Part shown: piece by piece, positions 25,846-62,985 of the stretch | How positions within the stretch are numbered: the first letter of the stretch is position 1 | Layout of the letters: each line of letters begins with the position of its first letter | Source of the DNA: Massalongia carnosa | Lineage: Eukaryota | Direction of reading: 5' to 3' | DNA: 64,000 nucleotides | Assembly (NCBI GenBank): GCA_965645245.1 | Contig: OZ287080.1 | Location: 1,674,001-1,738,000, forward strand | Notes under the pieces: model-generated | The model's input: the letters and a program-made list of their open reading frames with translations, nothing else | Databases searched by the model: none | Told to the model about the DNA's origin: nothing | Program-made: the position numbers and the translations under genes

Positions 25846-28487
25846 GAGTACGGATACGTGGACACCCCTTTGGCTACCTGGACACCCCCTGAGGTTACCT
25901 GGACACCCCCCAGTGATACACGGACACCCCCTTCCTAGAATAGGTAAGAATCAAGGGTTCAGCCCCCTCACTTACCCACTTCGGGGTAAGCTCCCGAGGG
26001 TGCACCTCGGGAATTTTTTTTCAACCGTAAACACCAACATTTTGGCACTTCGTAAACATCATCATCACCAACATTTTGACACTTTATCATGTCTGCACCA
26101 CCTCCTGACCCCCCACCTCCTGCCCCACCTCCTGACGGACTTGCACCCCTCGAAGATGAACCAGCTACTCCACCCCGACCACCTGGCCCTCTACCCCCTG
26201 GCGGACTTGCACCCCCCGAGGATGGACAAAGTTTTGAAAGTCTGGAAGACCTGGTTCTACGAGTCAATGAGCATGCTGGTCGTCAAGGATACGCAGTCGT
26301 TTTGGGTCGAACCAAGAAGTCGAAACTTAAGGTAACAAGAAAGGCATGGCTGATATGTGATCGAGGAAGAAAAACCGACGGACCAAGAGGTCAGGATCGG
26401 CGACATACGGGTAGCCGACGAATTGAATGCCCTTTCTCTTGTGTGGCCACACGAGAAAACGACAGTGGTATCTGGTTTTTGGAGGTGGTCAAATCGACTC
26501 ATAATCATGCTTCTACCCTCGCTGGTGCTCATCCAGCGTTGAGGAAATTGGCGATGACGAAAGAGGTTAAAAGTGAGATTTCCCGAGCTCTGATCGTGCA
26601 AACAGCCCCTTTCAAGATTTTATCTAGTCTTCGTGTTGCTGATCCGACGACGGGAATCAATTTTGACGATCCAGAAAATCCCTACATCATCAATCCCTTA
26701 TTCAAACCTCGGGATATCTACAACGTCAAAGCACAGCTTCGTCGCGAGACACTCGGCCCATTGACTCCGGTTCAGGCATTAATCCGAGAGCTGGATCAAG
26801 GAGATTGGACGTATCAGATGCAAAAGGATGATCTAGATAGAATAACTCATTTATTCTTTATTAAGGGCTGTTCTCAACGACTATTGAAGACGAATTACGA
26901 GGTGTTGGTGATGGACGCCACTTACAAAACCAACAGATATAAGATGCCCTTATTGATCATCAGTGGTCAAACCGCCCTACATACCAACTTCTATGTGGCA
27001 TTTTGCTTCATGGCCAAGGAAGCCACGTCTGATTATACCTGGATGTTGCAGCAATTGCGAGGTATGTATGATGGGATGATGCTTCCTAACCCGATCGTCA
27101 TAGTCACGGACATGGAAAAGAGTCTGATAGCTGGAATTGAGGATGTTTTCCCCGCAACCAATCATCTGCTTTGCTTATGGCACATCAATAATAACGTCCT
27201 GACCAATTGCAAGAAGAGCTTCGATACCAAAGAGGCGTGGGACTCCTTCTTCGCTGACTGGAAAACGGTCGTTTATGCCTCGTCAGAACCAGAGTTTTTG
27301 GAGTCATGGGAGCGATTCAGGATTCAGTATCAGGGTCAGGATCAATGTGTGGAATATCTAAACGACATCTACATACCCTTCCGACATCGTTTTGTCAAGT
27401 GCTATACCAGTATGATTACTCATTTCGAAACCACCACTACCTCTCGAGGTGAAGGTGGGCATGCAGTACTTAAGCGACAGCTAGGGTCATCATCTGGAGA
27501 TCTTAAGACGGTGGTGGACGGAATCAATCTTCTATTGATCAATGAACTTCACAATCATCTGATTCGTCTTGATGAAGCGAAGGTGCGACTACCTATGGAT
27601 ATTCGCAAACCTATCTTTCAGGAAATCAGTCCATACGTCACTTCCTATGCTTTGAGAAAGATAATGCCTCAATACGAACGTTTGGTTGGTCAACCAACAG
27701 CTATTCCGGCCTGTACTGGAACGTTCAGTTTAACCATGGGTCTTCCGTGCAGTCATAAGATTCAGGAACGATTGTATGGGGATGGGGGGGGAAAGTTGCT
27801 ATTGGAAGATATTCATCCTCATTGGAGGTTTGATAGGACAGCCCGTGTGGCTATTGATAATCCTTATCTTCGGGTTCAGGCACCCAAAGTTGCTAGACCA
27901 AGGGGCAGACCTCCAGGTGCGGAGAATTTGAATAGAAGACAGCAAGCATTCGAGGCATCTACTAATCGTGATCCTTCCCTTTTCGAGCGGGTGGACCCGG
28001 ATGCAGATCAATCAGCCGTTCATCGAGCGGACCCGGCACCTGGTCGTGGACGAGGCAGACGGGGACGGGGATCGGGATGGGGACGGGGACGGGGAGGTAG
28101 GGCTAGAGGAGGGGTTATAACAAGGGGATTGGCAGATAAGCTGACTACAAATGACTCGGAGGCGGGGACGGCGACAGGGGGGGGGGGGGACAGCGACAGC
28201 AAGCGGAGATGAGGAGGTTATCATCATTAATTAGACCAAATGAGGCTTAGTTTCTAGAATCAGAGTCTGATTTGCAAAGACAGTGCCAATCGACTTCGTT
28301 TCAGAAATTCCCGACCACTTTCAAAAGGTGAAGGAAAAAATTTCCCCGATATGCGCCCGGGAGCTTACCCCGAAGTGGGTAAGTGAGGGGCCTGAACCCT
28401 TGATTCTTACCTATTCTAGGAAGGGGGTGTCCGTGTATCACTGGGGGGTGTCCAGGTAACCAAAGGGGTGTCCACGTATCCGTACTC
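25846..28487 (+). mobile_element. Mutator/MULE DNA transposon, apparently complete
   Basis: TIRs of ~150-175 bp starting GAGTACGGATACGTGGACACCCC at both ends; TATATATA on both flanks; one intact transposase ORF. Confidence 0.95.
26089..28212 (+). CDS. MULE transposase (FAR1-type N-terminal zinc-binding region plus MULE DDE domain), 707 aa
   Basis: WLICDRG...RRIECPF...HNH; LVMDATYKTNRYKMPL; IVTDME; CLWH; RGEGGH; CTG...GLPCSH; AT-hook PRGRP. Confidence 0.93.
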   Translation: MSAPPPDPPPPAPPPDGLAPLEDEPATPPRPPGPLPPGGLAPPEDGQSFESLEDLVLRVNEHAGRQGYAVVLGRTKKSKLKVTRKAWLICDRGRKTDGPRGQDRRHTGSRRIECPFSCVATRENDSGIWFLEVVKSTHNHASTLAGAHPALRKLAMTKEVKSEISRALIVQTAPFKILSSLRVADPTTGINFDDPENPYIINPLFKPRDIYNVKAQLRRETLGPLTPVQALIRELDQGDWTYQMQKDDLDRITHLFFIKGCSQRLLKTNYEVLVMDATYKTNRYKMPLLIISGQTALHTNFYVAFCFMAKEATSDYTWMLQQLRGMYDGMMLPNPIVIVTDMEKSLIAGIEDVFPATNHLLCLWHINNNVLTNCKKSFDTKEAWDSFFADWKTVVYASSEPEFLESWERFRIQYQGQDQCVEYLNDIYIPFRHRFVKCYTSMITHFETTTTSRGEGGHAVLKRQLGSSSGDLKTVVDGINLLLINELHNHLIRLDEAKVRLPMDIRKPIFQEISPYVTSYALRKIMPQYERLVGQPTAIPACTGTFSLTMGLPCSHKIQERLYGDGGGKLLLEDIHPHWRFDRTARVAIDNPYLRVQAPKVARPRGRPPGAENLNRRQQAFEASTNRDPSLFERVDPDADQSAVHRADPAPGRGRGRRGRGSGWGRGRGGRARGGVITRGLADKLTTNDSEAGTATGGGGDSDSKRR

Positions 28488-38840: not shown

Positions 38841-39494
38841 CAATTTTACATACATCTTGTTATTTTCGTTAAGTCGATTCTCGATTTCTATGCGAAGTGC
38901 AATCAGATTGCCCCACATGAACTTTACAACGAACAGGAATTTCAGGAAACTTTCTATACAAATTCTACTTGAATTCTTTCGAAGAAATAGCCCGTGTCAA
39001 ACGAAAAAGCAAGACGTCAAAATGTCGAAAAATCGCAATAATACACGATTTATTACGAATATCTGACCGTGTTAAATTATCCTCCAACCCCTTTGCGGTG
39101 TAGTAGCCCTGCGAGCCTTGGCGCGCTAGGCAGTATATAATAGCCATGAAGGTGTGTTCTATTGAGCTCTGTCTACATGGTTATTATATACTGCCTAGCG
39201 CGCCAAGGCTCGCAGGGCTACTACACCGCAAAGGGGTTGGAGGATAATTTAACACTCCCCTTACCGATCAACTCCCTTATCGGTGTAGCCGTGGTGGAGG
39301 CAGTATGAAAATACAGCAACAGATCAAAGACAATATAACTCTCTCATGTGAAAAAAAAGGATAAATCCCCTCGTGCCAACAGAATAGGTGCTAGCGAAGT
39401 CGGTTGTTTCTTCCTGCACTTCCCTCCATGATGGCAATCGCAAGCGATGTGCTCCCTCATGCGAGTTGTCCTCTCTTTGCACCATTCATCCCAT

Positions 39495-39805
39495 CCCTTA
39501 TGGCGGCAGGACAACTGCCCCTCTATTCGGGTTGTACTTCCTTCATGGTGGCAGGGCATCTACTCCCCCATTCGGGTTGTACTCCCTTCACGGTGGCAGG
39601 GCATCTGCTCCCCCATTCGGGTTATACTCCCCTCATGGTGGCAGGACATCTGCTCCCCCATTCGGGTTGTACTCCCTTCATGGTGGCAGGGCATCTGCTC
39701 CCCCATTCGGGTTATACTCCCTTCATGGTGGCAGGACATCTGCTCCCCCATTCGGGTTGTATTCCCTTCATGGTGGCAGGGCATCTGCTCCCCCATTCGA
39801 GTTGT
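39495..39805. repeat. 45-bp minisatellite, about 7 copies
   Basis: Unit g(g/a)catctgctcccccattcgggtt(g/a)tactcccttcatggtggcag; the 15-aa periodicity shows in the ORF track. Confidence 0.92.
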
Positions 39806-39939
39806 ATCCTCGGCATCCTGTGGATGCCTTCTCCTATCTCCTTTATGGTGTCCTTCCTCCATGATGGCAGTATACCTGCTCCCTCATGTCGGTTGTCCTA
39901 GGTACCCTGCGGGTACCTCCTTCCATTCCCCTATCTCCC

Positions 39940-40182
39940 CACGCGGTGCGAAAAATAGTTGACACACCAAAAATATAAAATAATTATGATAGGCTACATC
40001 GTTAAGTAATACATTTCAAAAAAGTTAAGGTGAATTTGAACACATAACTCTATTACTCTATCAAGTCTGTTTTACTGGTTCATCTGTTGTTGATTTTCTA
40101 TATTATATTGAAGCTTTGATAGTTGTGTAGTTTTATGCGTACTGACGAGTTTTGGTGTGTCAACTTTTTTTCGCACCGCGTG
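39940..40182. mobile_element. 243-bp MITE with ~31-bp TIRs and a 5-bp TSD
   Basis: TIR CACGCGGTGCGAAAAA(T/A)AGTTGACACACCAAAA at both ends; CTCCC on both flanks (39935-39939, 40183-40187); AT-rich interior. Confidence 0.88.
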
Positions 40183-40503
40183 CTCCCCCACGGCATTCGG
40201 CGAAACGGCAACCGAGAGGAATAAGAACATCGAGGTAATGTGTAGGCGAAGGTCGTAATTAAAAGGAAAGAAGTCAGGAATTGAGATCAATTGGGTGGTG
40301 GGTGGGTTAAAAAACGAGTGAACCACGCTAGCGCGCCAAGGTTCGCAGGGCTACTACACCCGCAAAGGGGTTGGAGGATAATTTAACAGACTGCTATCGC
40401 AGCCACGTTAGTCAGCTGGGACGCTAATCCGAAGGAGCTTAGCGAAATAAGCTAACCCGGAGGGGCTTAGACGGCTCCTATAGCCCTTGAGGCAAGGTCT
40501 GAG

Positions 40504-40595
40504 TGTGACGAAGCGAGATAGATTTCTACCATTGCGCCACCTGTCCTTCCTGACCAAAAGGCACAATACTTAGTCCGCAGACCAAGCTCTATTCT
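40504..40595 (+). repeat. Dispersed copy of the 3' end of the Fot1/pogo-like element (matches 62556-62653)
   Basis: Shared tgtgacgaagcgagatag...accattgcgccacct...cacaatacttagtccgcagaccaagctctattct. Confidence 0.85.
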
Positions 40596-41787
40596 GTGGG
40601 GCGACATGTGTCATCTATGGTCAGGTGACATGGCAGGCCTGTGTGGGGATAAACCGGGTTTTTTGCTGGCGTTTTCTTCATCATCTCCGGACATCATCTT
40701 CTATCACCTACGCTGTCATCATCATCGTCGTGTCACGTAGTCATCGATTACACGTTCATTTCGTGCATCAACTAGTCATTCAGTCGTTCAGTCGTCGAGT
40801 TCTTTTCATGTCTATGCAGTCGTAGGTCCATTCAGACGTTTGTGTGTGTGTGTGTGTGTGTTCACTGCTCAGTTCGCCATCTATCATCACGTACCACCAC
40901 CTTCCATTAGCACGCACGACTACCCTTCTACAGTACCACCTGATCTTATCTCACCGAGTTCGTCTCGTCACATAGATTGTAAATTAGACGTCGATGTAAA
41001 ATTGTGTCGAACGCTTCGGTTACCTTTAAATTCAAAAGATAGTTATTTTATCGATTTCTTAATCTGATACCGTGTGAATTCGTTTAGTTAACAGTTTCAG
41101 TGCAGTTTTGGTTGATCTGCCTCTTCTGCCATCAATTTGTGTATCTTCTAGCAGTCGGTAGGTTTCCGTTAGATGAGGAATAAGATTGATATCAGATGCA
41201 TTTATCTATTAAATATGATGAGTATGTTGATTCACGTGTAAGTATAATAGCGTGACTGTCATTGAAGGTAATTATCTATGTGGACTATTTACCTGCTTAT
41301 ATAGCAGTCACATATGGAATCCGAACAATCCGAACAGTCATACTATAGGCCTCCCATAACTGCCTACTAGGCACCCGCGAGACTCTCGATGGATGCCCAT
41401 AGTGATGGTAGCCTGACCATCTAACAGAAATATTCTGCTTCTATGTAGTTCAGATGCACAAATATGCATCTCATCAGGGTGCTTTCTCGCCTCCACAACA
41501 TTCTTTTCAACAAGCATAGCATTAGACGGCTGATCGGCCCCTCGATGAATCGACATTAGGTTATGCTCTCGGAACCGATTAAAGAAGATTGTGAAACGAA
41601 TTTAATTCGTATCGTCTACAATGGCATAGCTACCTTCAGCTTGCATTAAAAATTTACCTGAACATCACGCAGCTAAAAAAGAGGGTACTTGCCCTGTGAT
41701 GAGCAGATAGTGAGACAGTAGTGTTCGAGACGAAGAAACTTGATTTATGTTAAAGCTCTCTTGGATGAGCATCATCTCTCAAAAGTA

Positions 41788-44117
41788 TCATGAGAATCCT
41801 ACGTCGATAGCAGCCATGGAGGTGAACATCATCCGCGCTGCCGACATATCCAATGCCATTTGTGATCGAATTTTCGGATCCATCTTCATTATGCTCATCA
41901 TGTTGTCTTCGTCATTAATCTCCTTCGCCCCTATTATTTGATTTCTCTTCCGATTTGGCGACATCGGTAATAGAGCCGGTCGGATGGCCTTCACTATCTT
42001 AGCCCGCTCAAAGTCGATCACTACGACCCGCTTCGTCTCCTCATTCCAAAGTAAGTTCGACATTCGTATATCTCGGTGCAAAACCCCAGCTCCGTGAATG
42101 GCATTGACTGCGTGGACCAGGTCCGACGTCCACATCTGCCGCTCCGTGCCGTTGGGTATCCTGCTGCCATCCAGACACTCTCCGGACCAGGACAAAAGCA
42201 ACATGTGAATGATACAAATTCCAGCATCGTAGTAGTACGGTTTATTCAGGTCAATGTTACCCAAACAGACTGGAACGTAAACTCCCTGGACTGTCGTCAG
42301 CAGTCGATAGACCTCAGCTTCGTGTCGAAGGTCCTTCACAAAAGCCAGGACTGTCCCTTTGGCCAGTACCGTGTATCCGTATGACGTCAGCGTGACCATG
42401 AAAAGAGCTCCTCGGGCGCCCTGCTTTCCCAACGGCTGACAAGCGTCACCTCGATTCTGCCGAAGCTGTTCATTCAGGAGCATCCGGAATTTCTCACCAT
42501 CGAGCTGATGCCGATCGCCCTGATGCCCTTTCTCGCAGTGGTTCGATAAATTCGGACAACGACGGTCAAGCGGTCCTCCTCGAGCCAGTCCTTGCAAGCA
42601 TGATTGCGTACAGAATGAACGTCTTTGGTCTCCGCGCGAGGAAGAATTTGCGCCTCGCGGAGGACGAGAACGCTGACTTCCCTTGCCGCGTATGCGGCCT
42701 TGAGGTCGAGATGGAGTATCGTGAGGAGAAGATTCATCATCAGTCGGGAGGGGGGGTTCCTTGTCGTCATTGAAAGTAGCATTAGACACTGAACGACAAG
42801 AAGCCTTCCTTGGGCGGAGACGTTGACGAATGGGAGATCGGACGGGAACGTCGAGGCTGTATATTTGCGAACGATATTCTGACAACAACGATGGTGATTT
42901 TTCTGCAGTTTCTGGAGTTTCGGGGATTTCCTTGAGAATGGCGATATAATCCACCTCCCAGATTTCGAGTGCATCTATGAGATCCTCACGCCATTCCCGA
43001 TTTCCTTGAGCCGACTCAAGAGCAAGAATACTGAAGGCTAAGACTTGACTGACGGCAGTGCGATGCAGGTAATCTTCAGTGCTTGTAAAATCTCCGTTCT
43101 GCGCATTTACATCCCTGTTGGGTTCGGCCAAGTGATAATAGGCTATCTTCACATTATCCTCCAGCTTGCTATGAAGGAAAACGAAAGCCTCTCCTGTAGT
43201 GATATAACCATACTGAGTTCCGCTCCTAACCATGTAGGAAAAAGTCTGGGTCACGACGGCGGCCACCAGTCGTTCGGCATGATATTCAAAATGGGCGACG
43301 GTGTCCTCTGTTGCCGGCACCAGACCCGGTTGATAACATGGTCTAGCTCCATCTTGGCACGACCAGGGTGAAGGACCTGGCGCAGCACGGCGAGTGTGAG
43401 CTTGTGGGGTGGTTTGTACTCAACAACAAGGGCCGGCTTCCGAAGGCCCTCCACCGTAGTATAGACACAAATCTGATCCGGCCGGGGACGAGGTTTAGAA
43501 AGGGCAGGATGGTGAGGCGTGGAAGGTTGCAGGTGTTGAGCTTCAAGCCTCTGGGCGACTTCCTCGGCGTCATCGCTCAAGGCATTCATATGATTATCAA
43601 ATGTAATTCCTCCAGTCAGTCCAAACTCACTTCGCATGTCATCTAGAGACTGCAGATGTTCCACAATTAGGGTAACCGGCGTTTCCACAATTTCTCGTTG
43701 AAGGTTCTGAAGGTCGTTCTCACTCGCCAGTTTCCGTGACGCCACTCTTGCGCCAAGAGTCTTGATGAAATGGCTGCTTTCGAAGACTCTGGGCATGTTA
43801 TCGAGTGGATAGATGGAATAAAGCAGCTCTAAAGTTTCCTTTTGTGTTTCGAGAAAGTCTTCCCACGATTGTAGATAGTCCGGACGGATTTTGGCCTTCG
43901 CATTGCTGGGATCTCCTTGAGTGCTTCGAGACTTGTCAGTTTGAATGGATATCGACTTCGACAAATGTTCATGACAGCGATCAAGGTATTCGATAAGGGT
44001 GGTTTGGCGAAGGGCCCGTTGGCCTTCTTGTTCGCACAGTTCTGCTCGTTCTCGCAGCTCTCGTTCTTCTCGCAACAGTTGCCTTAGTTCCTCGAGCTCC
44101 AGCGAATGTCGTGCCAT
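41788..44117 (-). pseudogene. Spok-family (spore killer) nuclease-kinase protein with one frameshift near 43321
   Basis: Coiled coil, TTLIEYLDRCH, PDQICVY...VVEYKPPHKL (PD-(D/E)xK), QTFSYMVRSGTQYGYITTGEAFVFL, Cys cluster CTQSC-x13-C-x5-H, kinase GARGALF/LAKGT/LHRDIRMSN/IDFER; ~776 aa if the frame is repaired. Confidence 0.82.
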
Positions 44118-44174
44118 ATTTGGGGATGTCTTGATTAAAAGGTTGTTTTTAAAATGTGAGGGCGGGTTCATTGC

Positions 44175-45491
44175 CACGCCCTTGAAAAAAAAAACTGGCA
44201 ACGTGTAAGCGAGCTTACCCCACTAAATTTTACCCCTTTTTATCAACATTTCACCTTTACATTGCGATAACCAGTCAATTGAAAGCTATTTATATCAAAT
44301 TAATGACCAGTCATGGCCCCCTCAGCTGAGATGACGTCCTTTAGCCGTTGAGGCATTGATCGTACTCTCTCATTAAGAAACTCCTGACTGACTGTCGCCC
44401 AGCCCTCACAAATCAATGCTTTTAAGCTCGCTTCGTCCCAATGAGGATACTTTTTAATATGCTGCTTTGTGGGCTGCCAGCTGTTTTCAATAGGAGCCAA
44501 ATCAGGTGAAGAAGAGCAGTTGAAATAATGCTCTAAACGATGATCCTCCTTCCATTTCTTGAATGCGTTTCTCGTCCTGCCTGTGCCATGCCTGGAATCA
44601 CCATCTTCTTCGAGCACAAAATCATCCCCTCGCTCTGGCCACGGCTTGACAACGGGCTCAAGTATTGAGTTAATGTATACTTGATGCGTCATCTTGCCAT
44701 TGCTGTTGCCCGGCACTTCGTAGAATATAATATCCGACTTGAAGTTGTAGCCTACAGCCGCCCAACAATGCAGTCTCTTTCGATCTTTCTCCGCTGGCGC
44801 ATCACGATGTTGTATACAATCCCATCTATAGCGTGTGCCTGGCTGACGTATGATGCGTAATTTGCCATCGGGCCCGTAGGAGAAATGAACTTCGTCACTA
44901 AATCGTACTCGATACCAATCTTCTGGTTTAGGATATTTGGCCAGCATTATATGAGCGTATTCCACCCGTTTTTGCATAGGAGGGTCGGCCAGCCATCCTT
45001 TGACGCAGGCTAGACATTTCTCGTAATTCAATGCAGCACGTAGCACGTTATGCATTGTACGACCCACAACATCTGCTCCAACTTCCATCGCAACTTGTTC
45101 CCATGTCAAGCGTTTTCCTTCGAGTTGTAGCTCATCTTCCTGAAGCAGCCGATCAGCCTCTCGTACTTGCTCGCCTGTGATTTTTGATCGTCTTCCTCGC
45201 GTTTCTATAAGCTCTGTATGATGACGAGTACGTGTCGAAGCTCCTTTGCGAATAATTCTGTAGCCAGCTCGTTCCGAAACGCCATACTTCTTGAAAAGAT
45301 TTCGTGGATCATGTACGATGCCTTCATCAAGAAGATATTCATGAATTCCTTGAAGTTTAGCTCGAATGGGAGTATCGTAGTGAGTTGCACGTTGCTTACG
45401 AGGCATGTTGGTGTGGATGGTTGATGAAAAGGGGGGAATTTTAATGGGGTAAAGTCGCCTACACGTTGCCAGTTTTTTTTTCAGGGGCGTG
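44175..45491 (-). mobile_element. IS630/Tc1/mariner-superfamily transposon, 1317 bp
   Basis: Imperfect TIRs of ~75 bp starting CACGCCC(C/T)TGAAAAAAAAA(A)CTGGCAACGTGTA; flanks ATTGC and TTTGC; intact ORF. Confidence 0.92.
44300..45406 (-). CDS. Tc1-like DDE transposase, DD38E spacing, 368 aa
   Basis: RVRFSDEVHF, FVLEEDGDSRH and SPDLAPIENSW; 38 residues counted between the second D and the E. Confidence 0.9.
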   Translation of the reverse strand: MPRKQRATHYDTPIRAKLQGIHEYLLDEGIVHDPRNLFKKYGVSERAGYRIIRKGASTRTRHHTELIETRGRRSKITGEQVREADRLLQEDELQLEGKRLTWEQVAMEVGADVVGRTMHNVLRAALNYEKCLACVKGWLADPPMQKRVEYAHIMLAKYPKPEDWYRVRFSDEVHFSYGPDGKLRIIRQPGTRYRWDCIQHRDAPAEKDRKRLHCWAAVGYNFKSDIIFYEVPGNSNGKMTHQVYINSILEPVVKPWPERGDDFVLEEDGDSRHGTGRTRNAFKKWKEDHRLEHYFNCSSSPDLAPIENSWQPTKQHIKKYPHWDEASLKALICEGWATVSQEFLNERVRSMPQRLKDVISAEGAMTGH

Positions 45492-45519
45492 TTTGCCTCA
45501 TTTACGGTGGACTGTAAGT

Positions 45520-47672
45520 AGAGACCGTAGACGCCTCTTCGGGGACGGAAGTGAGGACGACAGAAGGTGTAGGAAGGAGAGAAGCGACTGCATCGACGTA
45601 CGAGGACGCCGACGCAGCAGGCTCTTCACTAATGGAGTGTGCCGCTGTCGCAAGAGCAGTCGCCTGCCCTCGCCAAGAAGCCTCGTCCAGCAGCCAGTCC
45701 CTCCGAACTGCCTCCACAGGAACCGTCAGAAAGGATCGAGGTAGCGTCGAGACCGTGGCCTGCAACTGTGAGAGCTGCGAACCCAGGACTCGAGCTATCT
45801 CCTGGGCATTTGCCGCCGGCAGCGCACTCAAGGTGGTCGTCAGCTGGCTCTGCCCGGAGAGTAACCTCTCCACAGCGTTGAGCGTGCGATCTTGCTTGAT
45901 CGCAACACCACTGACCTTGTTACTGACGCCATCAACGGAGTCAGCAACAAGAGGCAGCACGCCGTGGATGACCACGTGGAAAGGTTCCTTTTCTACGGCC
46001 TCCAACTCCCGTATCTTCGCCGCAAACGCAGGCCAAAGGGGATCTCTGAAGACTTGGTGTCCCCAGAGTGAAAGCTCAGGAAACTGAGACTGTAGAAGCG
46101 CCGCGTCATGCAGGAAGACACAACGCAGCCGCAGCAACATCTCCAGAACCTTCTTCCCTGCCTTATCCGCATCAGGAAAAAGACCGCCTTTGTACGCCGC
46201 CAGAGCGTCATCCACCCAGTGCCACACCTGCCACTGCAGGGCCAGATCCGGTGAGTGTCCTCCTCTTCTCAAAAAGTAACTCCCGCGGGAGTTGCCAAAG
46301 CCGGCGGCGCGACGCATGTAGACACGCGGCAGGCGGGTGAGGTAGTTAGTGGCCCAGACGCCACGTTCCCATCCGCCTGCTCTCGTGATCTGAAGTAGTT
46401 GATAAAAGGGTAATGCTAGTAAGTATAAGGGGCCATGAATCGTAGAGTACATACCTGGTCCGCGGGGACCTCCCACATGTCGGCTAGCCGTGACGAGGAC
46501 TGCTGCATGGTGTGGACCGTCTTGGAGCTGTCGACGCCGACAGCATCCAAAGCCGGCTTAATCCATCGGGCCTGTGTTTTGTCGGAGATCTCCTCCATAG
46601 ATCGCGCCAGGCTCCCGGAGATGACCTTCGTGAAATACCACGAAGATCGATCCCGGAAGTCCGGCCGCTTCTCCATGAGGAGGTCCCAGCGCAAGACGAG
46701 CCAGTGGGTGAGGGCGCCGAGAGGACAGAGGACGACATCTCTGCTCCGCAAAGCACCATGGTAATGCTGGCGGCGCGAGTTGCCCCCGTCCGCCAGAGGA
46801 ATGCTCTTGCCCTGGCCAATTCGAAGGATCAACGCAAGGCATTCGGACCCCTCGTTAGGGAGGTCGTAGGCGCGGAGGTCAGGTAGCTCAGCCCTCCGCG
46901 TTGACTTCCCCCGCAGCATCATCGAATGCATTAGGAGGAAGTCGAGGCGAGTCCGCAGGAGGTGCCACTCGCCGCCCGCCACGCCCTCCTCCCCCCAAAC
47001 CTTGCCCCCGGCGAGCAGCATTGCCGAAAATTGAGCGGCCTGCTCAGTCGTGTAGCCGTCGGTGAGGCCGTGGATCGCGCGATCCTCGAACGAGGCCCGC
47101 TTTAAAGCGCTCCAATCGATGCGTAAGCGCGTCATCAGGGCTTTGGTGGCCTTCCCTCTGGGATGGGGCACCACCAAATTCTCTTCGAGATGCTGGTCAT
47201 CGAAGAGGGCGCGGAGGGCAGAGACGTAGCCCGATTCCACGCTATCGGGCGCCAGGGGCCGGGATAAAGGGTCGTCGGCTTACTGCAAGCAGAGTCAGTA
47301 AGCTACAAAAAGATGATTCTATCCCTGAATTCGAGTTCAGGGGGCGACTCACCGTCTCAACGAGCTCCTCGCCGTCGGAGATTTCCTCGAATTTTTCACC
47401 TCCTCCACCTCCTCTCCCTCTACCGCTGGCGAGGCTTCCACCGCCTCCATCGCCTTCCCCTTCCCCCTCTTCAACGCGCGGCGCTAAGCCTGCCGTTGGC
47501 GATTCTGATCCCGCCGCCTGGCCTGCGCTGCTGCGCCTGTGAGCTTGGGACGTGGGACGAAGCGCAGGCGGAGGAGGACCTCTTCGAGAAAGAAGAGCAT
47601 CTTCCGCTCCCACACAAGGACGCCGTCAGGAAAATTGCGACGTCGGCACCACTTCTGTAGGATGTTAGCGTA
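45520..47672 (-). pseudogene. CryptonF tyrosine recombinase, internal fragment lacking exon 1 and the C-terminal GCR1-like domain
   Basis: Inverted near-copy of 48506-50660; RTRLDFLLMHSMMLRG, CPLGAL, KTVHTM, RAGGW, NYLTRLP; a TAA at the start of exon 3. Confidence 0.88.
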
Positions 47673-48221: not shown

Positions 48222-51032
48222 ATGGACCCGGGCCCCTCCGCTGCAGGCCCCGCTGTCGCAGATCCGGAGACGGCGGCGCCTCTTTCTTGGCCTCCTCCTG
48301 AGGCTTACGTTGATGTCGACGCCGTCAAGCGTGAGTCTCAGGCCTATGCCACCCACGGCAACAACGAGGCCGCCATGGCCGCCACCATGAGGCGCGTCCG
48401 CGGGATGCGGGAGGAGGATCGGAGGGCCAACACCCTTAAGACGTACCGCACGTGCTGGCATCTGTGGGAGGTGACTACGATAGGTATGCCCTGCAACTTT
48501 GGGCCTACGCTAACATCCTACAGAAGTGGTGCCGACGTCGCAATTTTCTTGACGGCGTCCTTGTGTGGGAGCGGAAGATGCTCCTCTTCCTCGAAGAGGT
48601 CGTCCTCCGCCTGCGCTTCGTCCCACGTCCCAAGCTCACAGGCGCAGCAGCGCAGGCCAGGCGGCGGGATCAGAATCGCCAACGGCAAGCTAAGCGCCGC
48701 GCGTTGAAGAGGGGGAAGGGGAAGGCGATGGAGGCGGTGGAAGCCTCGCCAGCGGTAGAGGGAGAGGAGCTGGAGTAGGTGGAAAAATTCGAGGAAATCT
48801 CCGACGGCGAGGAGCTCGTTGAGACGATGAGTCGGCCCCTGAACTCGAATTCAGGGATAGAATCATCTTTTTGTAGCTTACTGACTCGTCTTGCAGCAAG
48901 CCGACGACCCTTTATCCCGGCCCCTGGCGCCCGATAGCGTGGAATCGGGCTACGTCTCTGCCCTCCGCGCCCTCTTCGATGGCCAGCATCTCGAAAAGAA
49001 TTTGGTGGTGCCCCATCCCAGAGGGAAAGCCACCAAAGCCCTGATGACGCGCTTACGCATCGATTGGAGCGCTTTCAAACGGGCCTCGTTCGAGGATCGC
49101 GCGATCCACGGCCTCACCGACGGCTACACGATTGAGCAGGCCGCTCACTTTTCGGCAATGCTGCTCGCCGGGGGCAAGGTTTTGGGGGAGGAGGGCGTGG
49201 CGGGCGGCGAGTGGCACCTCCTGCGGACTCGCCTCGACTTCCTCCTAATGCATTCGATGATGCTGCGGGGGGAGTCAACGCGGAGGGCTGAGCTATCTGA
49301 CCTCTGCGCCTACGACCTCCCTAACGAGGGGTCCGAATGCCTTGCGTTGATCCTTCGAATTGGCTAGGGCAAGAGCATTCCTCTGGCGGACGGGGGCAAC
49401 TCGCGCCGCCAGCATTACTATGGTGCTTTGCGGAGCAGAGATGTCGTCCTTTGTCCTCTCGGCGCCCTCGCCCACTAGCTCGTCTTGTGCTAGGACCTCC
49501 TCCTAGAGAAGCAGCCAGACTTCCGGGATCGATCTTCGTGGTATTTCACGAAGGAAGGTCATCTCCGGGAGCCTGGCGCGATCTAAGGAGGAGATCTCCG
49601 ACAAAACACAGGCCCGATGGATCAAGCCGGCTTTGGATGCTGTCGGCGTCGACAGCTCCAAGACGGTCCACACCATGCGGCAGTCCTCGTCACGGCTGGC
49701 CGACATGTGGGAGGTCCCCGCGGACCAGGTAAGTACTCTACGATTCATGGCCCCTTATACTTACTAGCGTTACCCTTATATCAACTACTACAGATCATGA
49801 GAGCAGGCGGATGGGAACGTGGCGTCTGGGCCACTAACTACCTCACTCGCCTGCCGCGTGTCTACATGCGTCGCGCCGCCGGCTTTGGCAACTCCCCCGG
49901 GAGTTACTTTTTGAGAAGAGGACACTCACCGGATCTGGCCCTGCAGCGGCAGGTGTGGCCTTGGGTGGATGACGCTCTGGCGGCGTACAAAGGCGGTCTT
50001 TTTCCTGATGCGGATAAGGCAGGGAAGAAGGTTCTGGAGATGTTGCTGCAGCTGCGTTGTGTCTTCCTGCAAGACGCGGCGCTTCTACAGCCTCAGTTTC
50101 CTGAGCTTTCGCTCTGGAGACACCAAGTCTTCAGAGATCCCCTTTGGCCTGCGTTCGCGGCGAAGATACGGGAGTTGGAGGCTGTAGAAAAGGAACCTTT
50201 GCACGTGGCCATCCACGGCGTGCTGCCTCTTGTTGCTGACTCCGTTGATGGCGTCAGTAACAAGGTCAGCGGTGTTGCAATTAAGCAAGATCGCACGCTC
50301 AACGCTGTGGAGAGGTTACTCTCCGGGCAGAGCCAGCTGACGACCACCTTGAGTGCGCTGCCGGCGGCAAATGCCCAGGAGATAGCTCGAGTCCTGGGTT
50401 CGCAGCTCTCACAATTGCAGGCCACGGTCTCGACGCTGCTTCGATCCTTTCTGACGGTTCCTGTGGAGGCAGTTCGGAGGGACTGGCTGCTGGACGAGGC
50501 TTCTTGGCGAGGGCAGGCGACTGCTCTTGCGACGGCGGCGCACTCCGTTGGTGAAGAGCCTGCTGCGTCGGCGTCCTCGTACGTCGACGCAGTCGCTTCT
50601 CTCCTTCCTACACCTTCTGTCGTCCTCACTTCCGTCCCCGGAGAGACGTCTACGGTCTCTGCGCCCTGTGGCTCCCTCCCCCAAGAGGGGCCGCCTCAAC
50701 GTCCTCCTGGCTGCCCGGCGGAGCCCATTCTCGGCGGCGTGACCTCGGCGGAGGCGGTGTTGGAGGAATTCGCGTTGGGGACGTTGGTGGAGGGGGTCCA
50801 GCGTGCATCTCTCGACGAGTTGGACCGCCTCTTTGGGGCTAAGTGGAGGTACACTCCTGCCCTGAGGCAGCGGTTCTACGTCAAGAGACGGATCCGTCGG
50901 TACCTTCAGGGGAAGGCGAATGAGCAGGGGAGGGATCCGTGGGATATTGCGCGGGAAGTTGACAGTTTGGGGCTCTCTGGACATCAGATCTCTAAGCGTA
51001 TTGACGCTGGAGAGGATCTGCTTCGTAGATAG
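48222..51032 (+). pseudogene. CryptonF tyrosine recombinase (Ndc10-II-like YR domain plus GCR1_C-like domain), 4 exons, several stops and a 4-bp duplication
   Basis: R-H-R-W-Y catalytic motifs (MMLRGESTR, VHTMR, AGGW, NYL); C-terminal VLEEFALG...LDRLFGAKWR...FYVKRR; introns 48471-48523, ~48829-48896 and 49729-49793. Element ends are not defined (roughly 47900-51590). Confidence 0.88.
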
Positions 51033-55364: not shown

Positions 55365-58300
55365 CTAAGCCTCATCGGGTCCATCTACGGTTTCCGTAGA
55401 TGGTCTGACGTTATCGATCGTCTGATCCATCCCTGTGAGGTCCTCTGGCGCCTTCGGTTTTCGAGGATGTTCTCTATGATATTGCAGAACCTTTTCGATG
55501 GACTTTCTGAAGTCGGTCCATGATTGCCAAGGTGGGTCGGCGTTCCATTCGTCCCAATTTCCAATATATGTGGCCTTATACTGTACCCCAAATTTCCTTG
55601 TCTCTCGATAGTCCACTATCTCTAAGATTTCCCACTCTTCATGTGTTGCCTCCTCATCGTTCTCGGCGATCAAGACAGGTGGGCCGGGAGGCAGTACTTA
55701 CCCTGGGAATGGATTGGACGGAGCGAGATGCAACTTCCATGGATGAAATATTGGGGTGAGTCCCACATTTTTTAAATGCTGTGGTATGTCAGGCTCATAT
55801 GCCTTGTTATCGATTATCCTAACAATTTTCCAGGGACCAACGTTTTTAAACCCGAGGGAACGACTTGGACGCTCTGATGCGAAATGTTTAGCATTAACGT
55901 ACACTAAACCGCCCACTTTGTATTCTGGGTGTGGTTGACGATCTTTGTTAGCCTGTCGTGTTTGTTCTTCCTGGGCCCATGTTAGCTGAATTCTTAACCA
56001 TTCTCGCATTGCTTCCTGGCGAGCGACTATTTTGTCAGCATGAAGTATCTCGGCTTTTCCCTTTTCTTCATATGTTCCTGGAGGCTCTATTCCCGAACGA
56101 AGATGAAAGCCGTGATCTGCGAAGAATGGTGTCATTCCTATCGAAACGTTAACATGATTGTTGACGGCGAACTCGGCATCTGAAAGATAGTCGACCCAGT
56201 TGTCCTGAGCATAAATGATGTATGATCGAAGGTAGTTCTTCATTACTTTATTTGCATTCTCAGTTTGACCATCCATTTCTGGATGATGCGTTGAAGAGAA
56301 CTTTATCTTTACTCCGTATCTTTCACAAATTCTTTTCCACAGATGAGCAGTCAGCTAACTGCCTCGATCGTTTACCGTTGACAATGGAAAGCCATACGAG
56401 GAGAAGAGTCGTCGAGACATGGCGTCCATTAATTCGTCGGTGGAGAGTGACGTAAGCGGTTCGTATAATCGTCTTTTGGTTAGACGGTCTACTATCACTA
56501 ATATGTGTTGATACACTCTATTCCTTCGCCGACATTCTGGCAAAAACTCCACAAAATCTAAAGAGACGTCTGTCCATTTCCTGTTTGGTATGGGTAGAGG
56601 ATTCAGTAAGCCTTGTTTCTTGACATTGTATGATTTTGACCTTCGACAAATGGAGCAGTTCACTGCGTATCTTTTGCAGTGATCCTTCATGTCGAACCAG
56701 AAGTAGTTTTCCATCAGTGACTGATACATGCTTTTATATCCCGGGTGTCCTTGCAGAGGAGGTTCGTGATGTTTCTGCAACAGGCATAATTGAAGGGGTT
56801 CATGATCTGGGACATACAGCCTTTCTTTGACATATAGTCTTTCATCTTTCACTTTGAGATCTCCCATGGCTAATTTGATCCCTTTCTTTATAAGATGCGA
56901 TGGAAGCTTGCGAAGTTCTCGTGTTTTGGCAGCGATTATGTCTTGAACTACTTCATCTTTTTCATAAATTTCTTCAATTAGTTCTTCTAGAGGTTTCGCT
57001 GATGGATCTTCTTCCGAATCGTCGCCTAGTTCTTTCACCGGATTTTCATTTAAAATCTGACTCTGAGCCTCTTCATCGTCCTCGATGTCCTGAGGTTCTT
57101 CAGCTTCTTCGTCAGTGTCATTTGTTCTTGTGTTTGCACAGAAGATCACTGATAAAGCCTTCTTTACGTCATCGTCCAGTTGATGCTCCTGTAGCAATGT
57201 CTGGAATTGATGTTGTTGTCGAGAGTCGTCAAACCCTTTTGGAAGATCTTGAGAACGTCGAGTAAGTGTGTCCGGCTTTTCGCCTTGTCTGCCCGGTCGA
57301 TACATGATTTTGAAATTGAACTCCGAAAGGAATTCAGCCCATCGGGCCTGTCTGCGCTTCAATTGCTTTGTCGTCATAAAGTGTTCTAGGTTTTTATGAT
57401 CAGTATAAACTTTGATTGGCTGGTCAGGCGCAGCACTTGCTGCCTCGGGCCGCCAGACTTCGAAGCTCTTTATGATAGCGAGGAGTTCCTTATCATATAT
57501 CATATAATTACATTCGGCCGGTGTCATCTTCTTGGAGAAATATGCTACCGGTCTGAGCACTCCGTCATGCATCTGAGATAAGACTCCGGCAGTGACGAAA
57601 TCCGAAGAGTCTGTTTCTATCCATGTCTCTAGAGAAGGATCGTAGTGCGCTAACACTGGTGCAGTAGTGAAGGCCTCTTTCAAATCTTCGAAAGCTTTTT
57701 TACAATCTTCGGTCCAGATGAACACGTTATATCGGGTTCTCTTCTTGCCCGACTTGGTCGTTATTTGTTCCCCTTTTGTTAATTCCGTCAGAGACCTTGT
57801 ACGCTGAGAAAACTTTGATATGAATCGTCGATAGAAGTTTGCAAAGCCTAGAAAAGCTTGCACGTCCTTCACGGACTCCGGAGTTTCCCATTTCAAAATC
57901 GCTTCAATCTTCTCGGAATCCATTTGTATTCCTTCAGTGGTGACTATAAGTCCGAGGTATTTTACTTTAGTCACCGAGAATTCACATTTGTCAATGTCAA
58001 CTTGGAGTCCTCGTTCCCCCAAGCGTTTAAGAACCTTCAAGACGTGATCTGAATGTTCTTCCTCATTATCACAGTAGATCAAGACGTCATCCAGATAAGC
58101 AGTACAAAAGACGTCTAAATATTCCCGAACCGAATTATTTATATAACTCTGAAAAGTCCCTGGAGCATTGCATAAACCGAAAGGCATGACCAGATATTCG
58201 AACTGGCCATATCTTGTGTTAAAAGCGGTAAGCCATTCATGTCCTTCTTTTACTCGAAGACGATTGAATGCCGTAATAACGTCTAGTTTCGTGAAGCGTT

Positions 58301-59357
58301 TTGCCTGCGAGAGTTTTCCGAGCGTCTCGTTAATTAGGGGAATAGGATATCGATTCTTTACTGTGATGGTATTCAAGGCTCGATAGTCCACACAAAATCT
58401 CAGTCCACCACCTGGTTTTCGAACTAGAAGGACTGGAGCAGCTGCTGTCGACGAACTAGGACGAATGAATTCCTTTCCCATATGTTCGTCAATATACTTC
58501 TTGACAGCTTCCAACTCCTGTTCTGACATAGGCTTATAGTTCCTGACATAAGGGGGTTCTTTTCCGTCCATGAGGTTGATCTCGTGATCCTCCTTACGAT
58601 GTTCCGGTAGTTCGTCTGCTTTATGCTTCATAAAGACTTCTATCATGCTATGATACTCTGAGGGAATTTTCTTCAACAATTCTTCGCGGGAGTACTCGGG
58701 TTTGCCTTTCATAAACTTGTCATAATCCTTTGAGGTGACGGCCCCAGTGGTTGTGGCACAGAAGGTCTTATGTTCTCGGGGAGTCCATAAATATCCCTCG
58801 TGATCTTTCTTCCTAACCATCCGAAAGAAATGTTTCACATTGACCGGAAGGACTTCGATATCGTCTTTTGTTCCGATCCTATTCTTTGCCCTACTTCCAA
58901 CAGCAAATTCGGTGCAGGTTATTCCACGCGAAAGGCATCCCATTTCCAAGCAATCGGCAGAGTTAAACTTCATAATTCGCTCTTTCCAGTCAATGCTGGG
59001 GTTGTGAGTTTGTAGCCACCCATCTCCTAGAATAATCGCGTACACGTCCAGTTTTGCTACATAGCAAAGGACTTTTTCTTGATGATCCCCGATTTTGACG
59101 TCGACTAGGGCGGTCCTCGTGAGAAGTTGGGCAACCTCTCCGTTTCCAAGGGTCAGTTTAACCCTCGTTTCTAATTTAGAGGTGTTCAGTTTATTTATAC
59201 GCGCGAAGGATTCATCAATGAGCTCAGCCTCACTTCCATTATCAACAAGTAAACGAGTTATAATTCCAGCTATGCTAGTTTTAAATACTAGATGCTTGCC
59301 CTCGATCTTCTTTTCAGTATCGAGAACAGCACAACTAGAGACCCTTACTGTCTTCAT
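55365..59357 (-). pseudogene. Gypsy pol (PR-RT-RH-IN-chromodomain) with an in-frame stop at 56355 and frameshifts
   Basis: ORFs 56355-59357, 55698-56276 and 55365-55673 carry consecutive pol domains. Confidence 0.92.
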
Positions 59358-61307
59358 TTCAGCGCTACCAATTTCACAAATGACATCTTTCTTAAGACGT
59401 CCTTGATCGCGATTTTGATCAAGGACTAAGCTTTTCCCGACTCGGAGTCAGAGTCTATCTCAACAATTCTTGTAGTGTTAAGCTGTTTTTCTTTAAATTG
59501 AGGGCAGATCGAGTCGTTTCCTCGATGACCTGACCCCCGACATGCCCAACAGCGTCCCTGACGCGACAATGTCTCTCGCTCTTCTTTCTCCAACTTTTTG
59601 GGGTTGGGGTCAGGATCGTACTAAACCCCTATCCAACTAGCGGGTTTGACTATCGTGGCGCTGAACTTGGAGTTTGGATGATCACCCGACTTCTTCTCTT
59701 TTGCACTCGATTGACGAGAATCGGAAATGGAGGTTTGTCCACTCGAGGACTTGCCTTTGCGACCAGAGTTCTTTGACGGACCAGACTTCTCTGGCCGAGG
59801 AAAGTAGTGAGCGATATCCTTGCGTCGATCTTCGATTCTCCTAGCTTCATCGAGCAAGGGACGAAAGTCGGTGAAAACTGAACCCATCAGTGAATTAGAG
59901 ATGTTTGGCTTCAATGTTACAAGAAACTTCTCTATCCTCTCGTCGATGGGGGTTTTGGCCTTTTGCCAAAGCTTAAAAATTCGATGAAGTACTCGCTTAC
60001 ACTTTCACCACTTTTCATTGTGATGGTGATGAGTTCTTTCTTAGCATCTCGACTCTGGAGATGTATGCCCATATAATGTTCGATCTCGTCGAACAGAGCG
60101 TCAATGGTGAGAGAGCCGCCCATGTCGACGACCCAGGAGTGCATAGCCCCAAAGATAGGCGCTTCCATCTGCGATAGAGCATAACTGACCTTTTCGCCCT
60201 CGTTGGCGTAAAGCGGAGAATCGGTCTTAAGCTTGTTTCGGACTGAGTATTGCCAAGGACTATATTCCTCAGCGTCTCCGCCTTTCAGAGGCTTGCTGGG
60301 GTGAATGCCACGTGGACGCCAGTTCTCTGGATTTATAGTGGTGCTCTGGGTTGTAGCCGTGTCCTCCCGTTGGCCACGAGAGGGGTCGGGAGCTGCTAGA
60401 CATCGCTCAAGTTTCTCCTTCTCTTTCTGTAAGTCCTGTTGGGCCCGGAGGGCTTCTTCCAACTCAATTTCTTTATGCGAAAGCTCTTCCTGAGCAAGAA
60501 GGATTTGGCGTTCGTCTTCATCCTTTTCGTCAGCGAAACGGTCATTAATCTGCTTATATTGTTCTAAATACTTCTTGGTCTTGATAAGCTTCATGAAGTG
60601 CGAAGCTTTTTTCGTACAGTATTTTGTCATAGGGAATTGCTCTGGAAAAAAACTCATACCAACGAGGACCTTCGTTTACGTCTAGGACGGCATTTCGGAA
60701 GTCTTTTAGGTTGCGAATTTTGTATCGTGCGGGATGTTTCCGAGTTTCTCGTTCGTAGTATGGATGTTCCGAGATGTCAATCTCGCGAGTCCCTTCCTTC
60801 TCATTTCCTGACCCAGCCTTCGGGGTCTTTTCTAGTATGCATTCTGTCTCGTCTCCATCTGCTCACCGGGTGTAAGCTCGGAGTCTTCGGACGTCCCTAG
60901 CATACTATCAGAGCGAGCCGAATGACGGGACATGGAACGGGCGCGAGTGTTAAAGGCAGGGCCTGCTTGAGCGTCTTCGCGAGGAGCGCCGGCCTTTCGA
61001 GCAGTCAGGGGAGTTTTCGAACTCATGACTGTGTTCTGGAGGTGAAAGAGCTCTGTCTTTCGATTCTGGAAGTTCTAAAGGTTCTGGAGTGAGGACCAGC
61101 TTGGATTCTCACGAGTGGTCGTTCTGGAAAGCTAAAGGAGCAGGTCGTTGTCCCTTTCTAAATGTACTGAAAGTTCTAGAAGACTGGAAGAGTTCTAATA
61201 AGCATTAAAGGTAGTTAAATTATGTCAGGCAGCTTGCCCTGATATTATTCAGTAGCTATAAACTAGAATTTAACTACAAGGAAGGAAAGAAAAGAATAAT
61301 CATCGCT

Positions 61308-61732: not shown

Positions 61733-62985
61733 GAACTCCTAAACATAATCTGCCGTGGTGCGCTAGCCAGTCAAGCGACGCGCGCTACTGCTTAGGCGAG
61801 TCACGCTGTCCCGTGACCACCAGAGCATGTCGGGTCAGGCCAGGACCTGACAGATTACCCCCCCATTCAACCCATTTGACGCAGCCATTGGAGGTTGGTA
61901 TTTTTCAGCCAATGAAATATTATCATGTTGAAGCGGTTGACAACGCCATTCGGTTGAGTGACGTTGACTTCAATCGTCTGGATTTTCTGGCCCCATTCAA
62001 TCAATTTCGTACAAAGGTATTCAAATCTGCCTGGGAAAAAACTGGGTTGATATATTACAATCCGGAGGTAGTCTTGACCAAAATTCGTGCTTTAAATCCG
62101 GCATTACCACCACTACCAATATTATCTTCGGAGACAAAAATCCTACCTCATACCCCCAAAAAGCCCAAAGACGTTGCTAAGGAAGGGGAAATATTTTTCA
62201 ACGAATGAATAATAATGAAGAAATTACTCCAGAAAGAATGCGACGTTTTATCAAAGGGTCGGTTGCAAACGCTAGTTTACTAGAATTGACGCAACGCGAC
62301 TTGCAAGCCACACATACAGCTGCATTAGCTAAAAGGGCCCGAAAAAAGCTTGCTGGCACCGTTGTTCAGAAGGGAGGAATCGTTACCGTTCGATATGTGA
62401 GGCACAATCACCTACATCGTACCCAAGAAGAGGTGGGAAGGGAAGGGGGTCGTCAAAAGCGTGCTGAGACGGCTAGACAAAAGAAAATATTTCTCTATAG
62501 AAAAGCGATAGCTAAACGGTTTGGCTTGGTAGGTAAAAAAGCCGAAAGCTGGATATGTGACGAAGCGAGATAGTGAATAGATTTTTACCATTGCGCCACC
62601 TATCCTCCCGACCAAAAGACACAATACTTAGTCCGCAGACCAAGCTCTATTCTACTATAACTGGGACTCCTGCTATGTTCGCTGTAGGTCCTGCCGTCCG
62701 CACCACGCATGGTCGAACCTTACAGGATAGATGAATATCAACCTTTGATTTTAAATAGCTTCATTTTGAAAGGGTCAATCAAAATGCGTCCTGGAGATGA
62801 TAGCGTCATGGAGGTGAGCCGCACCCCTAGCTCCACTCGGGGTGCGGTCCATCGGATTTACCTCGGTCGCACAGTTAGTACGATAGATAATATAAGGTAA
62901 GATTGAATCGTCGATTGTTTTTTTTTTAAATTTTGTTGTATTCGTTTATAATATTCTCATGATTATTTTCTAAATAAATCATAAC

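Follow-up and report, generated by a model that had tools for sequence, protein, structure and literature searches.

A probable, recently inactivated Spok-family gene in a transposon-rich region of what is most likely a lichen-forming ascomycete

Here, we describe a gene of the Spok toxin-antidote family on the minus strand of a 64-kb stretch of DNA (hereafter, the window; Table 1). The gene joins a nuclease-like N-terminal half to a kinase C-terminal half, and its reading frame is broken within the nuclease by the loss of a single base. Altogether, our analyses make it very probable that the locus is a recently inactivated Spok-family member that combines SPOK2_N with an atypical kinase; the fungus that carries it is most likely a lichen-forming ascomycete. 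The locus adds a new, broken gene to a family that is already known and common, and it reveals neither a new mechanism nor a new class of element.

Gene structure and the frame break

Two minus-strand stop-to-stop open reading frames (ORFs), 43251..44222 (323 aa, with an ATG at 44117) and 41788..43419 (543 aa), overlap by 169 nt. A preliminary description of this DNA had joined them into one intronless protein of ~776 aa, and the joining is borne out by collinear matches to full-length relatives with one frame switch. In a tblastn comparison, four relatives of 772-788 aa (P0002, P0003, P0005, and P0014) matched the window at the Spok locus only, each as two collinear pieces: frame -3 at ~44033-43293 (61-68% identity) and frame -2 at 43320-41806 (63-74% identity). 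The N-terminus of the window copy could be aligned to these relatives from residue 23-42 onward. Relatives score E = 0 to 1e-94, so the match is not due to chance. The motifs quoted in the preliminary description are also all present (RPDQICVY and VVEYKPPHKL, CTQSC...C...H...H with spacings 3/13/5/9, GARGALF, AKG, HRD..N, and DFER).

The frame switch sits between ...INRVW and PATEDTVAHFEYH..., where the relatives continue ungapped as INRVWVPS.KDTVA.FEYH. An intron across the break was considered and rejected, since the conserved residues of the relatives abut on both sides with no gap. The length of the gene, 2330 nt, equals 776 codons plus a stop minus 1 base; accordingly counted, a read-through bridged with an X gives 266 + X + 509 = 776 aa with zero in-frame stops. 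As it stands, the base loss near 43319 ends the frame at 43251-43253, 22 codons past residue 266, and there is no open reading frame for both functions. The open frame takes in the catalytic D...ExK residues but not the conserved QxxxY helix or the final core strands. The sole product from the native ATG is thus a protein of ~288 aa that lacks a whole nuclease and the antidote domain.

The existing gene call at the locus, P0001 (41791-43257), is a bacterial-style call on a fungal contig; it gives 488 aa from a GTG read as Met and conceals the N-terminal half of the Spok-family gene.

Relationship to the Spok family

Homologs were searched with the 543-aa ORF as the query. Among 8000 candidates scored, 455 proteins matched at E <= 0.001, and the best 120 of these 455 were listed; these listed matches are the source of the taxa and identities given here. 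The 120 relatives are mostly 700-850 aa long. The closest share 58-74% identity with the query; next come the named lichen fungi Lepraria neglecta (71%) and Ptychographa xylographoides (63%), followed at 40-53% by Leotiomycetes, Geoglossum, Usnea, and a dothideomycete. Multiple diverged copies of the family occur in single genomes, with three copies in Geoglossum simile, two in Leptodophora, and, among representatives of the profile search described below, two loci in Macrophomina.

The precomputed Pfam label PF27653 is carried by 120 of 120 listed hits, among them the window's own product, P0001. Its Atlas name is SPOK2_N, and it is found on 98%, 99%, and 95% of the members of the three nearest Atlas clusters (52, 2593, and 422 members), which consist entirely of Ascomycota. 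A profile search among 1.84 billion yielded 6397, 3107, and 1551 representatives (clustered at 50% identity) at E <= 1e-3, 1e-10, and 1e-30, and one cluster in this search contains proteins of Microsporum canis. An alignment of 107 sequences has 103 columns with a conservation of 90% or more, of which the window read-through retains 102. The retained residues include D214, E233, K235, Q291, Y295, C500, C504, C518, H524, H534, K584, D680, N685, and D699. The window copy has the catalytic D, E-x-K, and QxxxY of the PD-(D/E)XK nuclease, each of which reaches 90% conservation or more among the 107 relatives, and the five Cys/His cluster positions are invariant in the 107 aligned sequences.

The domain order had been likened to that of the Podospora SPOK proteins, and the comparison holds up. 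Like Podospora SPOK1-4, the window copy runs from a coiled coil through domain 1, a PD-(D/E)XK nuclease, a disordered linker, and a Cys/His cluster to a kinase, the same order as is described for SPOK3 (PMC6660238). In SPOK3, the PD-(D/E)XK motif lies at residues 219-240 (catalytic K240), QxxxY at 294-298, the cysteines at C493/C497/C511, and the kinase Asp at D667 (PMC6660238). Compared by these published numbers, eight landmarks of the window copy follow in the same order within 3-13 residues of their SPOK3 counterparts, while the catalytic Asp is at position 680 both here and in SPOK1 (D680; PMC9972908). The coding region is intronless and adjoined by transposons, as in SPOK1-4. There are also differences from Podospora: the spacer before the last His is x9 in the window copy and x7 in SPOK3 (PMC6660238), the window copy is frameshifted, and its nearest named relatives among the listed matches are lichen fungi, Leotiomycetes, and Eurotiomycetes rather than Sordariomycetes.

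Could the gene instead be an ordinary cellular kinase that merely resembles SPOK and has no selfish history? Relatives are indeed labeled as generic kinases, as had been noted before, with source names such as "protein kinase domain-containing protein." The local Pfam copy likewise matches kinase families only; for the second ORF, these are Kdo at 25.2 bits (cut-off 21.3), APH at 24.0 (23.2), and Pkinase at 31.3, which is 0.4 below its cut-off of 31.7. However, this kinase shares its polypeptide with a restriction-endonuclease-like domain whose catalytic residues are conserved, the family carries the SPOK2_N label, several genomes have multiple diverged copies, and the locus shows a broken frame, a duplication, and transposons all around it, which together make an ordinary kinase extremely improbable. 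Some source names in the family are misleading: P0081, P0230, and P0264 are found under "signal recognition particle subunit SEC65," "Lipopolysaccharide kinase," and a record labeled Carpinus fangiana. This last record, nominally from a tree, is probably fungal DNA in a plant assembly.

Predicted folds of the two halves

A nuclease and a kinase had been read from motifs, and structure prediction of each half is consistent with this, giving a nuclease-like N-terminal half (in the VIA scan described below, with a relative's sequence) and a kinase C-terminal half (in Foldseek, with the window's sequence). Because the break splits the nuclease domain of the window copy, we folded in its place the relative P0049, an intact N-terminal record of 558 aa with 69% identity to the read-through, supplying the alignment of 107 sequences. 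The model has a mean predicted local distance difference test (pLDDT) score of 80.9, with a helix at residues 2-43, ordered blocks at ~45-200 and 220-410, and a disordered stretch at 415-508 (pLDDT <50). Helix 2-43 (pLDDT 87-98) matches many coiled-coil chains over residues 1-43 at Z 5.4-5.8, and the strands at 222-241 bear the D...ExK motif.

A scan independent of Foldseek (VIA; 48,161 chains) placed the N-terminal nuclease domain of BpuSI at the top (Z 9.4, root-mean-square deviation 3.8, 152 residues, model range 51-377), and DrdV (Z 7.0) and the nuclease domains of type I HsdR (Z 6.7 and 6.3) also matched. These best structural matches, BpuSI (3s1s, type IIG), DrdV (7lo5, type IIL), and HsdR (3h1t and 2w00, type I), share the D...(D/E)xK plus QxxxY arrangement. 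They differ from the window family in sequence (6-14% identity) and in architecture, as the family lacks methylase, helicase, and target-recognition modules and instead has a fused kinase. The fold match agrees with the HsdR similarity given by Vogan 2019 (PMC6660238), who likewise aligned the SPOK nuclease to HsdR.

The last 287 aa of the window copy itself (41791-42651) folded at pLDDT 88.5, with an ordered Cys/His region (blocks 11-40, pLDDT 93-96). This model has at least 500 Foldseek matches at E <= 1e-3, and the 43 printed rows (ranks 1-50) are all kinases at probability 1.00; the top kinases among the matches listed are MSK1, Rio2 (rank 2), and CaMKII. Kinases are also what a profile search of PDB sequences returned (profile positions ~651-758), with no match for the nuclease half. 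The C-terminal half thus resembles the atypical small kinases (Kdo/WaaP, Rio2, and APH) in its Kdo and APH scores above the Pfam cut-offs, its Rio2 match, and its compactness (~150-240 aligned columns). It differs from them in having a C3H2 cluster fused ahead of the kinase.

Sequence variants at the break and a second copy

We compared contigs of five sequencing runs from three studies (organisms A and B and a lichen metagenome) with positions 39500-46500 of the window. Runs X1 and X5 are from organism A and belong to the same study, X3 is the lichen metagenome, and X4 is from organism B; copy number was taken from contig depths only. An extra base behind 43319 accounts for all of the depth in X3 and X4 and for 40-48% in X1 and X5 (Table 1). 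With this base, the minus strand reads W-M-P-A-T-E-D in frame.

Such in-frame contigs invite the reading that the organism has a working, intact gene and that the missing base is an assembly or sequencing error. The break is the one defect in 776 codons, 102 of 103 conserved positions are kept, and the X3 and X4 contigs with the extra base come from two other studies. However, contigs identical to the window coexist with extra-base contigs in X1 and X5, where the short form makes up 52-60% of the depth. Since both forms appear in these runs, the base is readable by the method. In addition, one X5 contig (record 28; 170 nt, 43207-43376, depth 850) spans the break with 0 differences from the window, and the break lies outside any long homopolymer. 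An error is therefore very improbable, and the short form is a true sequence in two samples of organism A rather than a slip of the consensus.

The second form occurs in X1 and X5 at similar depth. In the one stretch shown, X5 record 29 (173 nt, depth 789), it has 10 substitutions and 3 added bases, which is ~92% identity to the window, and it also bears the 2-base changes at 43273 (+2), 42745 (+2), and 43840 (-2). Two loci are favored over two alleles, because the gene has a depth of ~208 and two forms while the unique flank at 40933-41736 has a single form in X1 (depth 129, 0 differences). Organism A thus holds a second, more decayed Spok copy with further frame-breaking indels. Its two variants but one flank form, with transposons on both sides, fit a patchy, multi-copy, transposon-associated distribution, as do the multiple diverged copies in several genomes.

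Transposon setting

The gene had been described as lying inside a transposon cluster, and we find Tc1/mariner, MULE, and Ty3/gypsy elements and an NDC10_II inverted pair around it. The left 21 kb of the window holds ordinary genes (SRP19, TAF4, CPSF73, a kinase, and a sideroflexin, at 5-21 kb), and the right two-thirds is a transposon-rich island adjoining these housekeeping genes. The mariner and a second repeat element have replaced the region upstream of the gene except for 57 bp (85 bp discounting the mariner). In X1, contig depth over the mariner is 2400-3100 vs 129 for the unique flank (~19- to 24-fold), and across both the mariner and the inverted-pair repeats it ranges over 2300-4300, so that these are repeated roughly 20- to 30-fold. 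An X4 contig (record 18) bridges the gene-mariner junction at 44088-44387, and organism B therefore has the same junction.

The NDC10_II inverted pair looks like two head-to-head copies of a putative Crypton-like element, with the left copy cut at 45520. A GCR1_C match lies just past its right arm (ORF 49587-51032).

This setting agrees with the pattern of Grognet 2014 (PMC4022471), in which Spok homologs are patchy, often pseudogenes, and have transposons nearby, with up to 11 copies in Microsporum canis. According to that study, Orbiliomycetes and Pezizomycetes are the only major Pezizomycotina classes without homologs. The setting also agrees with that of Podospora Spok-Psi-1, likewise a decayed Spok copy with a Tc1/mariner-type element (Grognet 2014; Vogan 2019). 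As presented in these sources, Spok-Psi-1 differs in that its 5' end is missing, it has several stops, and the transposon is within the coding region, whereas the window copy has one frameshift and a mariner 57 bp upstream. Given the Grognet 2014 pattern, the family's own Pfam entry, and at least 1551 representatives, a locus of this kind is unsurprising.

Spok-family genes outside Podospora are also known from Fusarium, with evidence of killing for homologs (Fs_82228 and the F. oxysporum spok on a Starship) that are often multi-copy and in mobile or accessory DNA (PMC6660238; bioRxiv 10.64898/2026.10.04.756499). In contrast to F. oxysporum spok, no DUF3435 recombinase (the Starship captain) was found in the window's 44 ORFs of at least 150 aa. 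Starship/Enterprise cargo is thus unsupported within the 64-kb window, and an element larger than the window is possible.

Table 1. Features of the window and base differences in contigs of other runs. Depths are given as depth with the difference/total depth.
Feature	Position	Strand	Remarks
Whole Spok-family gene	41788..44117	minus	ATG 44117-44115, stop 41790-41788; 776 codons if single break read through
5' part, frame -3, 266 aa	43320..44117	minus	N-terminal helix/coiled coil, domain 1, first half of PD-(D/E)XK nuclease with D214, E233, K235
Frame-break site	43317..43322	minus	1 base fewer than contigs of other runs (extra base between 43319 and 43320)
Second half of nuclease domain and low-complexity disordered linker	42655..43317	minus	Q291-x3-Y295, TGEAFVFL strands
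Cys/His cluster	42514..42618	minus	C500-x3-C504-x13-C518-x5-H524-x9-H534; coordinates computed from residue numbers
Compact kinase domain and C-terminal tail	41791..42513	minus	G-A-R-G-A loop, K584, H678-R-D680, N685, D699-F-E701
1 base added	behind 43319		X1 84.1/208, X5 789.2/1639.2, X3 55.1/55.1, X4 9.5/9.5
2 bases added	43273		X1 84.1/208, X5 789.2/1639.2, X3 0/91.3, X4 0/9.5
2 bases added	42745		X1 78.8/196.5, X5 500.2/1288.8, X3 0/51.6, X4 0/7.16
2 bases missing	43840		X1 87.2/207.2, X5 1005.4/2078, X3 23.7/45.6, X4 5.1/9.8; about half in all four
Tc1/mariner, 73-nt inverted ends, DDE_3 ORF	44175-45491	minus	57 bp upstream of ATG; outside gene, takes place of upstream region
Inverted pair, 2 x 2.16 kb, 96.3% identity	45520-47672 and 48506-50660		GC 0.56-0.60; NDC10_II ORFs on both arms
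MULE transposase ORF	26080-28212		710 aa, intact
Ty3/gypsy pol	55698-59447		1030-aa ORF and integrase SH3 piece
DDE_1 fragment	61735-62208

Interpretation of the locus

Killing by SPOK3 requires its nuclease Lys, and resistance requires the Cys cluster and kinase Asp (PMC6660238); SPOK1 kills via DNA targeting (PMC9972908). By analogy with these Podospora proteins, intact members of the window's family would use the N-terminal PD-(D/E)XK nuclease to damage DNA and kill spores or cells without the gene, while the C-terminal Cys cluster and kinase would protect carriers. Killing and protection together would lead to over-transmission of the gene at meiosis. Both this toxin-antidote mechanism and the idea that drive once operated in the lineage are extrapolated from Podospora and should be read as putative.

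For the copy described here, the ~288-aa stub is probably harmless. SPOK3 residues 1-490 are toxic alone, and a stop at codon 282 (E282stop) was recovered as an escape from toxicity (PMC6660238); the stub, which is all that the native ATG can give because the frame ends before QxxxY, is comparable to that escape mutant. The antidote half has no start of its own. Judged from the sequence, the inactivation appears to be very recent, because 102 of the 103 conserved positions are intact. The preliminary description had proposed an uncharacterized Spok-family selfish gene in another ascomycete lineage. Its family assignment was right; its novelty and function were overstated, as the family is common and has its own Pfam entry, and the frame here is broken. 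Instead of a working gene we find a pseudogene, in which a base loss in the contigs of two samples cuts the nuclease and transposons replace the upstream region.

The frameshifted allele might alternatively be kept as a resistance-only, non-killer allele, with an internal start or a transposon promoter giving rise to the Cys-cluster/kinase part, which would protect against circulating intact Spok alleles. It is suggestive that the break strikes the killer half only, that the antidote half keeps every conserved residue, and that in-frame forms at the break site exist in other samples. Nevertheless, the first in-frame Met is ~30 codons past the break, and eukaryotes reinitiate translation inefficiently. 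A very recent break would account equally well for the perfect conservation. The K240A change in SPOK3 separates killing from resistance, and strain A has a natural Spok2 allele that is resistant without killing, but the resistant non-killers described there are full-length proteins (PMC6660238). We consider a resistance-only role distinctly unlikely.

Several points weigh against our reading of the locus as an inactivated Spok gene. In the first 288 aa, no Pfam family was found by the local Pfam copy, which lacks the PF27653 model. The link to Podospora SPOK1-4 draws on the precomputed Pfam label, whose scores are not visible, on published residue numbers, and on architecture, and is correspondingly indirect. 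The 20 named representatives among the 150 listed nearest the profile are Lecanoromycetes, Eurotiomycetes, and Dothideomycetes; because they include no Sordariomycetes, the window's subfamily may lie far from the Podospora and Fusarium genes that have been tested. The N-terminal model is that of relative P0049 and not of the window's own broken sequence, and a Foldseek search of the PDB with this 558-aa model gave no match at E <= 1e-3 (BpuSI at rank 3, E 0.25). In the VIA scan, mitoribosomal proteins scored Z 8.8 and 7.3 and just two chains reached Z >= 8, and the BpuSI score of 9.4 is only moderately above the tool's stated background of 7-8, so that the fold match is supportive but not strong by itself. 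Confirmation of the break is not fully independent, as X1 may be the source sample of the window and X5 is from the same study. Finally, whether the second variant is a paralog or a second genotype in the thallus was judged from depth alone.

The reading of the locus as a recently inactivated Spok gene fits the expected life cycle of a drive gene, with invasion followed by decay beside transposons. We found no description of Spok genes in lichen fungi in the literature searched; the window documents a Spok-family locus in what is probably a lichen-forming fungus, and population-level evidence shows one allele just knocked out and a second copy further decayed. The deletion is polymorphic, and because the frame stays open at the break site in the X3 and X4 contigs, which come from two other studies, an intact allele may still segregate in lichen-forming fungi. 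In its fuller form, this proposal holds that such an intact Spok allele could act as a meiotic driver or post-segregational killer, and that the broken allele, with its antidote half untouched, could be suppressed or resistance-only; we regard this reading as a whole as unlikely. If it is true, post-segregational killing after hyphal fusion, as reported for Fusarium, would be possible for the intact allele, and the locus would capture drive and decay in progress in a symbiotic fungus for which crossing is not practical. The locus is also a warning for annotation, as automated calls give a 488-aa "kinase" fragment and relatives are named generic kinases.

Other features of the window

A tandem array at 39494-39809 has a period of ~45 bp, and its translation gives a spurious Pfam match to Caerin_1. 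The stretch at 40436-40669 has a contig depth of 104,279 vs 129 for the flank (X1), with a 78-bp copy (93.6% identity) at 62577-62653; this could reflect a small repeat of very high abundance or a sequence common to other organisms in the sample.

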